A stretch of 64,000 nt of DNA, taken from positions 3,498,752 to 3,562,751 of the forward strand of contig OX638375.1 of the NCBI GenBank assembly GCA_951813575.1, in the 5' to 3' direction. Within the stretch, counting starts at the first letter, position 1, and each line of letters begins with the position of its first letter. The translations under genes and the position numbers were made by a program. A model generated the notes under the pieces. The model was not told the DNA's origin. It was given only the letters and a program-made list of their open reading frames with translations, and did not search any database. The DNA comes from Candidatus Binatia bacterium. GTDB taxonomy: Bacteria > Desulfobacterota > Binatia > UBA9968 > JAJDTQ01. Shown piece after piece: positions 9,324 through 11,447 of this stretch.

Positions 9324-9607
9324 CCGAGGTACTCCCTTGTCGCCCTTCTGCTGGGGATGATGGTTTTGAGAAACCGTGTTCCTCTCCGTTCCACGTACGG
9401 GACCAGGTACACGTACTCTTCCATGTTCAGAACGATGATCCGCTGGTTCGGATATCGGGATGCATTGGGATGCCTGATGATATCCAGGATGTCGCCATTC
9501 TCGATGTGAAAGACCACGTCTTCAAAACCCACGCCCCGTGTCTTCTCGAGTAGCGCATTCTTTTCATCATCCCAGTCGAATGCAGGCACGTCCGAGAACC
9601 CTCCCAT
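9320..9607 (-). CDS. brnT: BrnT-family toxin (DUF497 ribonuclease)
   Basis: FDWDDEKN...RGVGFEDV......QRIIVL.....YLVPYVERRGTRFLKTIIPSRRATREY matches DUF497/BrnT conserved positions. Confidence 0.75.
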   Translation of the reverse strand: MGGFSDVPAFDWDDEKNALLEKTRGVGFEDVVFHIENGDILDIIRHPNASRYPNQRIIVLNMEEYVYLVPYVERRGTRFLKTIIPSRRATREYLG

Positions 9608-9690
9608 GCTGTGTGCCTTTTGTCAACAGCTTGGTGTTCGTCCGGCGTCCCTACCGAAAATCCCGACTCTTCCTCCGCACCGACTCCAGC
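9606..9690. repeat. Diverged duplicate (copy A) of the dnaE2 3' end and 3' UTR, 1.75 kb downstream of the real dnaE2 terminus
   Basis: About 78 bp with about 90% identity to 11363-11447 (copy B), which spans the dnaE2 stop codon. The minus-strand frame reads ..[13 protein letters not shown], against the genuine dnaE2 end ..[16 protein letters not shown]. Confidence 0.55.
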
Positions 9691-10157
9691 GCCGTCGACC
9701 TCCGGGGAATCGCGGTAACCGACGCCGAGGTCGATCTCGGGGCGCCTCCGACGTGGTCCTCACCATGAGCGGCGGGGTCCTGTCCGGTTCCGTGGCGGGG
9801 GCGGGGAGCCTTCGGTACTAGGGCACGGTCTCCGAGGAGCGGGTTCAGGTCGCGGGCGTCACCCGTATCGTCCACCACCGGGAGTGAACGGGGCTCCGCC
9901 GGCGCCGCTCGGAATGTCGTGCGCCGGCCGTTCAGGCGATGCGGAGCCGCTTCGATCGAGCCGGAAGCGACCGCGGTGTCACACTTCCTCCGGGGTCGGC
10001 GTGGATGTCCGCGGAATATCCCAGTGTCAAGAAACTCGGAGGTCCACTTCTGTCGATGGGCACCCAAGCTGATCGACCGTGCCATACCGGCGTCAACGCG
10101 GGGGAGAGATTCCAAGACACCGGACTGAAAAATCTTCCATCCGCGGGGGAATCCAAG

Positions 10158-10552
10158 ATGAGTGACTCCAAACGACATGTAACCATTGCTGCGAGGGCCG
10201 TTCCGCCGCGAACGAAGCCATCCAACTACCCGGAGCCGTACTTCAGCCGTATGACCAAACGAGAGCAGAAGCCGCTCGGCGACTTCTTCGGCCTGAAGAA
10301 TTTCGGTGTGAACCTCACCAAGCTGGTGCCCGGTGGTGAGTCCGCACTGCTGCACTCTCACAGCAAGCAAGACGAGATGATCTATGTCCTTGAGGGCGAA
10401 CCAACGCTGGTAGTCGAGTCCGGCGAAACTATGCTCGCACCCGGCATGTGCACGGGTTTCCCGGCGCAGGCGAGGCGCATCACTTGGTCAACCGCACCGG
10501 CGAGGACGTTGTGATTCTGGAGATTGGTGACCGCACTAAGGGCGGCATATGA
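10158..10552 (+). pseudogene. Cupin-domain protein with a frameshift (or sequencing error) near 10470
   Basis: MSDSKRHV...LLHSHSKQDEMIYVLEGEPTLVVESGETMLAPGMCTGFPA then a frame jump. The shifted frame continues AGEAHHLVNRTGEDVVILEIGDRTKGGI* (cupin motif 2). GGGGGAA sits before the ATG. Confidence 0.45.
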
Positions 10553-10914
10553 GTTTCAGAGGGGCGGGAATCGAATGCTCCGGCTGCGGCGGAAGTAGAC
10601 AGCCTGACAGCGCCGAATGGGCGCACCCGCCTCACAGGACTGCGTGACCCGTGGCTCAATCCGACCGACCGAGTCCAGTGTGGACGAACCGGTCGCCGAC
10701 CACTCCACAAGGACAGACTAAGGCACAGGCCATGGCCATACCTTCAGCTTGGTATTTCGAGAGGTTGGGCGTATGATGACAGCGGAGATACCACTTGTGT
10801 CGGCCGACCTTCACCATGGCAGTCGTTCGGGCTGTCCTGAGTGCCAATAGTACGGATGGTTCGCCATCCGGGAAATATCGGTTCAATCAAATAGTGGAAT
10901 AGGGAGAAATTACA

Positions 10915-11274
10915 ATGAAGATGCCAACATCGGTAAAACCCGCCATTTGGGGTGCGATCGGCGGCGCGATCGCTACAATGATCGTCGGTTTCGCCTGGGG
11001 TGGCTGGGTGACGGGCGGGACGGCCGGACAGATGGCCTCGGCAGGCGCCGAGTCGGCTATTGTCTTAGCGTTTGCGCCACTCTGCGTTGCCAAGGCGGAG
11101 CTGCAGCCAGAACAGATCGCGGGCCTGAAGGGAGAGAGTTACTGGAAACGCAGCGAATTTGTCGTCAAGGCCGGCTGGGTTGCCAACGTGAGCGAACAAT
11201 ACCGCTCCGCGGTCGCGGAGGCGTGCGCAGTGACCGTCGTTGAAGCCTTGGAAGCGGCGCCGCCGCCAAAATGA
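10915..11274 (+). CDS. Hypothetical small membrane protein (glycine-zipper TM segment)
   Basis: 119-aa ORF with the strong RBS AGGGAGAAATTACAATG and the TM helix WGAIGGAIATMIVGFAWGGWV. No family recognised. Confidence 0.4.
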   Translation: MKMPTSVKPAIWGAIGGAIATMIVGFAWGGWVTGGTAGQMASAGAESAIVLAFAPLCVAKAELQPEQIAGLKGESYWKRSEFVVKAGWVANVSEQYRSAVAEACAVTVVEALEAAPPPK

Positions 11275-11362
11275 CGCCTTCGTGGTCGCCGCCCAAATCG
11301 ACCTTAGCAGGGCGGAAACGGTGATTCCGGCGCGCGCGGACGAGCACACCGACTACAAGTGT

Positions 11363-11447
11363 GCCTTTTGTGAACAGCCAGGTGTTCCTCCGGTGTCCCT
11401 ACTGAAAATCCCGGCTCTTCCTCCGCACCGGCTCGGTATCTAGCTTC
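11363..11447. repeat. Copy B of the 78-bp repeat, overlapping the authentic dnaE2 stop codon and 3' UTR
   Basis: See copy A at 9606-9690. Confidence 0.55.

Follow-up and report, generated by a model that had tools for sequence, protein, structure and literature searches.

Why should a gene end twice? In a 64,000-nt stretch of DNA from a Candidatus Binatia bacterium (contig OX638375.1 of assembly GCA_951813575.1, positions 3,498,752 to 3,562,751 of the forward strand; hereafter the window), the 3' end of dnaE2 (imuC), which encodes an error-prone homologue of the DNA polymerase III alpha subunit, is found a second time, in diverged form, 1.75 kb downstream. The original prediction, made from the sequence alone, took these direct repeats for the footprint of site-specific integration into dnaE2 or, alternatively, for a partial tandem duplication. 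We argue here that foreign DNA was probably inserted into the last 36 nt of dnaE2 by a homology-driven process that required no integrase. The argument starts from the repeat itself, from empty sites in relatives, from a patchwork cargo without an integrase, and from the recurrence of such insertions, with variable boundaries, in related genomes.

The gene belongs to an ImuA-ImuB-DnaE2 mutagenesis cassette, as is evident from its domain set (PHP, DNA_pol3_alpha, finger, HHH_6 and OB in Pfam), its SRDF motif and its operon with imuB (Y-family-like) and imuA (RecA-like), a gene order that is kept in relatives. About 90 DnaE2 homologues share the C-terminus SRDF[HQR]*. The longest open reading frame (ORF) of dnaE2 extends to 14686, but relatives align only from residue 43-48, and the ATG at 14560, which overlaps the imuB stop codon, is the likely start. 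The features on which the question turns are the following:

11399-14560, minus strand: dnaE2 (imuC), error-prone DNA polymerase III alpha homologue (Pfam, operon context)
14560-16092: imuB, same operon as dnaE2
16070-16717: imuA, same operon as dnaE2
11359-11434, minus strand: copy B of the repeat, the dnaE2 tail now in use (repeat search, blastn, translation)
9611-9686, minus strand: copy A of the repeat, probably the resident end of dnaE2 in a displaced position, together with the 40 nt downstream, still joined to brnT (repeat search, blastn, translation)

Repeat search and blastn agree on a single direct repeat with a spacing of 1748 nt. Copies A and B align over 76 nt without gaps and are identical at 68 positions (89.5%; blastn E = 1.7e-24 within the window), their likeness ends abruptly at each edge and cannot be extended, and blastn revealed no third copy in the window. 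The predicted repeat is therefore real, but its limits had been set at 9606-9690 and 11363-11447 and it had been thought to span the last 15 codons of the gene; in fact it comprises 11 codons and the stop codon (36 nt) plus 40 nt of downstream sequence. In copy B these parts lie at 11402-11434, 11399-11401 and 11359-11398, respectively, and the B-type tail of dnaE2 reads ..CACCTGGCTGTTCACAAAAGGCACAC. The minus-strand translation of copy A likewise still reads as a dnaE2 tail, as had been noticed before, and is preceded by unrelated sequence. The coding part of copy B shares 97% identity with the dnaE2 ends in three related loci (L012, L014 and L024; L-numbers denote fetched loci), whereas the 36 coding nucleotides of copy A reach 89% to the closest relatives. 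Both copies contain an upstream motif that is specific to brnT, TGTT(G/C)ACAAAAGGCACAC, and the edge of copy A lies 3 nt from the brnT ATG at 9607. Across the 179 fetched loci the 76-nt sequence does not occur outside dnaE2 ends or displaced dnaE2 ends; a dispersed repeat, which had been named as a finding that would undo the prediction, is ruled out by this restriction and by the presence of only two copies in the window. A transposon target-site duplication is ruled out as well, as 76 nt is far above known duplication sizes and no terminal inverted repeats bound the insert.

Which of the two copies is the older inhabitant can be judged from the genes that adjoin them in relatives. The closest DnaE2 loci, drawn from 185,579 species genomes, are metagenome-assembled genomes mostly labelled Candidatus Binatia, and in other species the order of genes is dnaE2, brnT-brnA (optional), SixA, nitrilase, Cupin_5 and enolase. 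In the window the corresponding features are:

9320-9607, minus strand: putative brnT toxin gene (PF04365, 30.2 bits, under the curated cut-off of 34.5)
9042-9323, minus strand: brnA, a CopG-type antitoxin gene (PF12441, 35.7 bits against a cut-off of 28; PF14384, 23.8 bits)
8546-9034, plus strand: SixA-like histidine phosphatase gene (PF00300)

SixA is a conserved core gene that forms the far boundary of the variable region and is syntenic in L011-L021, L026 and L177. Two loci, L017 and L178, possess dnaE2, the same 76-nt sequence and brnT-brnA with no insert between them; L021 and L026 have the order dnaE2-brnTA-SixA, and in L013, L014, L015, L019 and L020 SixA follows dnaE2 directly. The empty sites that the original prediction had proposed to look for are thus present. 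Positions 9500-9687 of the window, that is copy A with the start of brnT, are colinear with L017 13304-13489, where the native dnaE2 end runs into brnT (93.6% identity), and L178 shows the same colinearity (93.6-94% for the two loci). Because L017 and L178 retain this native order, copy A would be the resident dnaE2 end with its original brnT neighbour still attached, and the DNA between the copies would be an insertion. The same spot is variable elsewhere: L024 loses its 95% identity to L019 4 bases past the dnaE2 stop codon, at the start of an island that exceeds 10 kb, and L177 harbours an AAA_14/DUF4143 ATPase gene there.

The DNA between the copies is a mixture of remnants:

9687-11358: inserted segment of 1672 bp, a decayed accessory patchwork without counterpart in any other species examined
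10158-10514 (the feature as a whole reaching 10550), plus strand: Cupin_2 pseudogene, with a frameshift near 10470-10480 and its C-terminus lost
10804-11321, plus strand: 519-bp unit with an intact gene for a 119-aa membrane protein (ORF 10915-11274)
11321-11360, plus strand: 40-nt 3' fragment of a Phd/YefM-type antitoxin gene (..VIPARADEHTDYK), which abuts copy B

Neither blastn nor tblastn matched the insert in L011-L090, and none of the other species carries its cupin or its membrane ORF at dnaE2. Its GC content is 0.59-0.67, against 0.70 in dnaE2. The frameshift proposed for the cupin was borne out, since joining the two frames raises the Cupin_2 score from 41.7 bits (positions 3-54 of 70) to 54.5 bits (3-69 of 70). 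By contrast, the membrane ORF is no "orphan": its product has 1121 homologues at 65-97% identity, with no Pfam domain in the family. At the DNA level the 519-bp unit recurs at 94.6% identity in L091-L094 and at 90% in L095/L096, in unrelated contexts but always adjoining a transposase gene, of the IS630-like helix-turn-helix type or the IS1595 type, and as a tandem pair in L092; judged from these sequence contexts, it resembles in its behaviour a small passenger module carried by mobile DNA. Nor do the cupin and the membrane ORF make up the whole content, as had been assumed, since there is also the Phd/YefM fragment, which has a 95% identical counterpart at L093 8684-8723, where it forms the end of a 50-aa ORF with a match to PF02604 (E = 7e-10). 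The remaining insert ORFs belong to no Pfam family and the remainder of the insert has no Rfam match; in 9687-10157 and 10515-10803 no gene remnants were recovered with Pfam, and tblastx against the fetched loci gave GC-rich noise only. A Pfam scan of all insert ORFs detected no integrase, whole or partial.

The insertion is shared within the species. Ten metagenome contigs (L001-L010; 98.5-99.9% identity to the window) all carry the same insert, with the repeat copies unchanged wherever they are covered except in L007, which has deleted 9637-9939 (most of copy A, including its coding part) and 9981-10603 (the cupin). Since all ten contigs carry the insert while L007 shows such deletions, the insert is fixed in this species and under erosion. 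Strains of the species diverge by about 1%, compared with 10.5% between copies A and B.

A survey of 80 genome loci, each queried with its own dnaE2 end, revealed displaced dnaE2 tails in four further genomes, three of them Binatia-like (L011, L012 and L017) and one from Acidobacteriota (L031). The simplest case is L012, where tail copies at 13236-13273 and about 21007-21060 flank a single gene for a 2512-aa Fn3/cadherin/Calx-beta adhesin and nothing more, the spare room beyond that gene being 26 nt and about 170 nt; SixA follows the second tail, as it does in L019. In L011 the first tail is followed by a truncated brnT, by brnA, by the second tail (-48..+2), by an MqsA-like gene and by SixA, and the second tail and the MqsA-like gene match the native dnaE2 end and MqsA-like gene of L024 at 92% and 88%, respectively. 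The insert of L011 ends past brnA, 27 nt into a copied SixA 3' end, which is closer to SixA of the window and L026 (89-93%) than to the SixA of L011 itself and which abuts dnaE2(-48) with 2 nt between the homology blocks. In L017 the tail is followed by brnTA, a dnaE2 fragment (-412..-290), an RHH_6+PIN toxin-antitoxin pair, a frameshifted second fragment (-424..+1) and SixA; the two displaced fragments share a derived base that is missing from all working dnaE2 genes, and within the insert a degenerate SixA 3' end of about 90-110 nt is separated from the following dnaE2(-412) by about 30 nt. Because their ends lie inside copied SixA, the brnTA inserts of L011 and L017 are best read as pieces of a relative's chromosome without defined element ends. 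In the acidobacteriotal L031, the displaced tail (-159..+1) comes after a gene for MerR and an unknown ORF; it was later split by an IS256-like element, which left a 6-nt overlap.

Taken together with the window, the five events have no crossover position in common: the upstream edges of the duplication lie at -36 (window), about -48, about -53, about -159 and -412/-424, and the only sequence that all five share is the universally conserved SRDF codons. The downstream edge lies at most 4 nt from the stop codon in four of the five, and in each event the displaced tail retains its resident neighbour. No integrase was found by Pfam in any of the five inserts, for which all ORFs of the window insert and the main ORFs of the L012, L011, L017 and L031 inserts were covered. 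As a negative control, 79 distant dnaE2 loci from a metagenome scan with the DnaE2 C-terminus (homologues of 36-56% identity) were searched, and none had a displaced tail. The displaced tails are too short and decayed for a phylogeny to trace their origin, and neither the window cargo nor the L012 adhesin gene was found downstream of dnaE2 in any fetched locus.

Some further rearrangements of dnaE2 were noted in passing. In L022 (12940-14600) an insertion sequence with a DDE_Tnp_1_4 transposase breaks dnaE2 at about codon 1045; the last 50 codons are replaced and the original tail lies 1.66 kb downstream, a plain disruption in which the gene end is not restored. L179 contains a lone 380-aa C-terminal fragment of dnaE2 (10001-11143; 76% to that of the window) with no imuB or 5' part of dnaE2 upstream and with an IS110-family transposase gene nearby. 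Between L178 and L017, whose identity across dnaE2-brnTA is 98%, there is an indel of 293 nt (L017 14027-14319) that contains one displaced dnaE2 fragment, and the two loci diverge fully after the RHH antitoxin gene.

How, then, would the second gene end have arrived? In the reading that we favour, foreign DNA entered long ago at a hot spot specific to the lineage, in the variable region bounded by the core genes dnaE2 and SixA, and brought its own dnaE2 end together with 40 nt of brnT-upstream sequence. This imported tail would be copy B, which now completes dnaE2, and the resident end would be copy A, shifted 1.75 kb downstream with brnT attached and decaying together with the cargo. Most likely, a fragment that included a short stretch from the dnaE2 3' end of a relative circularised and entered by a single (Campbell-type) crossover in that homology; alternatively, one homologous crossover within dnaE2 could have been combined with one illegitimate joint (one-sided homologous recombination). 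Two features expected of Campbell-type integration are seen, namely a duplication of the homologous segment around the insert (36-424 nt) and a novel joint next to the displaced copy, which in the window lies at 9686/9687 and sets insert DNA against dnaE2(-36). A fragment reaching from dnaE2 to SixA, with its ends joined and one crossover in the dnaE2 homology, would yield exactly the structures of L011 and L017, and by analogy with these two the window's own insert may likewise derive from a chromosome fragment. In E. coli, DNA with homology to a gene end was mostly integrated as re-circularised molecules by a single crossover, which left gene-end duplications of 109-950 bp (PMC3240628), and the natural duplications of 36-424 nt match this experimental range. 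The circular intermediate, the identity of the donor copy and the recombination pathway are what we infer from these structures. A crossover farther up dnaE2 also fits the mosaic composition of the window gene, whose 5' 2.1 kb is 96.8% and whose 3' 1.1 kb is 92.2% identical to L024 (Fisher p = 5e-8), while the comparison between L019 and L024 is uniform along the gene. Separately, the window dnaE2 has stretches in which L011 or L017 is the closest relative.

Several points weigh against this interpretation. No donor genome was found that combines dnaE2, a B-type tail, the Phd fragment and the membrane ORF. With 36-76 nt of about 90% identity as its substrate, a single crossover would be inefficient, and this length is short for a RecA-dependent crossover. 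The lower identity of copy A fits its decay but cannot by itself tell which copy was resident, and the mosaic 3' third of dnaE2 may stem from an unrelated recombination event. Moreover, five events at one gene end suggest more than chance, the distant control loci lack displaced tails (0/79), and in L017 the starts of the two fragments lie within about 12 nt of each other; this clustering and the nearly equal starts therefore leave room for a site-specific factor acting in trans or for a decayed integrative element. Taken further, the last 40-420 nt of dnaE2 in Binatia might be a dedicated capture site at which integrase-less modules are stacked, each with a fresh tail, an idea that we hold to be doubtful. 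Its modules would be toxin-antitoxin pairs, an adhesin gene and small membrane proteins, so that the whole would amount to a cassette array on coding sequence, a description that we find equally speculative; the driver, no less conjectural, would be a trans-acting recombinase or recombination tied to the SOS-induced ImuA/ImuB/DnaE2 machinery.

Closest to the original prediction is a decayed site-specific integrative element, i.e. a genomic island, an integrative mobilizable element or an integrase-less cis-mobilizable remnant with the dnaE2 3' end as attB, which we consider unlikely. Its attP would have carried the replacement gene end and its integrase would have been deleted or would have acted from elsewhere in the genome, a scenario to which we give the same low weight. 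The locus does have the classical form of such elements: the direct repeats stem from the 3' end of the target gene, the target is intact, and the low-GC patchwork cargo includes toxin-antitoxin debris. The dnaE2 end is a hot spot reused in several genomes, with a downstream repeat edge that stays close to the stop codon in all but one event and with nearly the same upstream edge in the two L017 fragments, and the erosion of the window cargo makes the loss of an integrase possible. However, the integrase is absent from every one of the inserts, including that of L012, where an intact single gene leaves no room for it, and the duplicated length varies from event to event. The ends of an integrative element should also be independent of the neighbouring chromosome, whereas those of L011 and L017 fall at different, arbitrary points inside copied SixA. 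Reading the shared 36 nt by eye revealed no dyad symmetry or dif-like arms, and a fold is present only in copy B; a literature search on dnaE2 as an attachment site returned nothing relevant. What stands of the original prediction is therefore an insertion that left the gene intact and is missing from relatives, but not the site-specific mechanism. An integron or Xer/dif-type site, also considered, is ruled out by the lack of an IntI gene and of visible dyad symmetry or dif-like arms.

Rearrangement in place appears improbable. A tandem duplication or the repair of a staggered break would have copied the 76 nt, and unrelated DNA would have been captured between the copies then or later. The brnT-specific motif in both copies and the end of the repeat exactly 3 nt before the brnT ATG would agree with this, and the membrane-ORF unit accompanies transposases elsewhere and could have arrived independently. 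Against it, two events are required, the copies differ far more than strains of the species do, and the parallels in L011 and L017 clearly came in from other lineages. The partial tandem duplication offered earlier as an alternative is disfavoured for the further reasons that the copies have different neighbours and that the SixA piece of L011 is nearer to other species than to its own. The least probable reading, which we consider very hard to sustain, is that the repeat is kept for a function, as a terminator, a stability hairpin or a regulatory site common to dnaE2 and brnT. In mRNA sense copy B indeed forms a hairpin across the stop codon (-26.4 kcal/mol, z = -2.8), but copy A has no fold (z = 0.08), and the pairing needs bases specific to copy B that are missing from copy A and from the native L017/L178 tails. 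Rfam has no match for the repeat, no terminator-like or promoter-like site was found at either copy, and L007 has lost most of copy A. A known RNA or structured element was ruled out on the same grounds, that is the empty Rfam search and the fold in copy B only.

The genes on either side of the insertion also bear signs of accessory DNA. The predicted start of brnT right next to copy A corresponds to the ATG at 9607, but a GTG at 9589, which follows a GGGAGGG ribosome-binding site, is the more likely start. The genes brnT and brnA overlap by 4 nt and have a GC content of 0.52 (9042-9607), compared with 0.70 in dnaE2 and about 0.67 in the genome. BrnT is 95.6% identical to its counterpart in L017, although the adjoining core protein SixA reaches only 81%; this low GC content and the excess of BrnT over SixA identity suggest, from sequence comparison, that the brnTA pair moves between lineages. 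At the other end of the operon, a RES-domain toxin-like gene (17471-18283, minus strand) and a conserved 205-aa ORF (16857-17474, minus strand) adjoin imuA. The 205-aa ORF is found in relatives, whereas L011-L033 contain no match to the RES gene, so that the other flank of imuA-imuB-dnaE2 also bears lineage-specific accessory DNA. Elsewhere in the window, a 33-nt hairpin-forming repeat, CGTCATTCCGGCGGAAGCCGGAATCCAGGCGGG, occurs at 6894-6926 and 50308-50340 (91% identity, 43 kb apart) and may be a dispersed element resembling repetitive extragenic palindromic (REP) sequences. Direct repeats of about 75% identity at 50452-50751/51800-52099 (300 nt) and 31800-31940/32007-32147 (141 nt) are probably paralogous genes or internal gene repeats.

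Taken alone, the feature in the window is an ordinary relic, the dead footprint of a displaced gene end beside decaying cargo. It is of value as a member of a set: at least five independent insertions, all integrase-free, restore the dnaE2 end in one poorly known phylum. Such insertions form a natural record of how short homologies admit fragments of a relative's chromosome, including toxin-antitoxin pairs, without the machinery of mobile elements. Displaced gene tails could mark this route of gene gain in uncultured bacteria, provided that the same pattern holds across whole genomes. For annotation they carry a warning: direct repetition of the 3' end of a gene is not in itself proof of an integrase-borne island.

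Insertion into the end of a gene with provision of a replacement end is well known from phage 21 and e14 in icd and from ICESt1/ICESt3 in fda. Other integrative elements of this kind at the ends of protein-coding genes are the islands specific to dusA (PMC4482086) and, in Vibrio cholerae, the recA island (PMC4405046). The dnaE2 insertions resemble such elements in the direct repeats of the target end, the intact gene, the dead duplicate beyond the cargo and the reuse of the site in relatives, but differ from them in that none of the five contains an integrase, the duplications range from 36 to 424 nt, and two inserts have their ends in neighbouring core genes. Streptococcus thermophilus ICESt elements also have integrase-less, cis-mobilizable relatives that undergo tandem accretion at att sites. 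Like these, the L017 array consists of cargo-only modules between att-like repeats stacked at a gene's 3' end; unlike the dnaE2 inserts, however, cis-mobilizable elements have a parent with a known integrase and one fixed att core. Chromosomal integron arrays similarly comprise small modules, toxin-antitoxin pairs among them, separated by related repeats. Here, in contrast, there is no IntI, no attI and no imperfect palindrome of the attC type; the cargo is of mixed orientation, the repeats are copies of coding sequence, the upstream neighbour is dnaE2 itself, and neither a conserved hairpin nor an Rfam family is present.

A likeness is also seen to Campbell-type integration of circularised DNA and to homology-facilitated illegitimate recombination (PMC3240628), which share with the dnaE2 insertions a gene-end duplication of variable length, the lack of a dedicated recombinase and the ability to take up any fragment that includes a piece of the gene. 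In its true, classical form, homology-facilitated illegitimate recombination couples insertion to deletion (PMC3240628), whereas the dnaE2 events led to duplication. The experiments, moreover, used laboratory plasmid substrates with 109-950 bp of homology, while the dnaE2 events are natural, with 36-76 nt at the shortest, and their pathway is read from the products. With these differences, we regard the recurrent, integrase-free and tail-restoring dnaE2 insertions of Binatia as a natural instance, of modest interest, of a recombination outcome that is already known.

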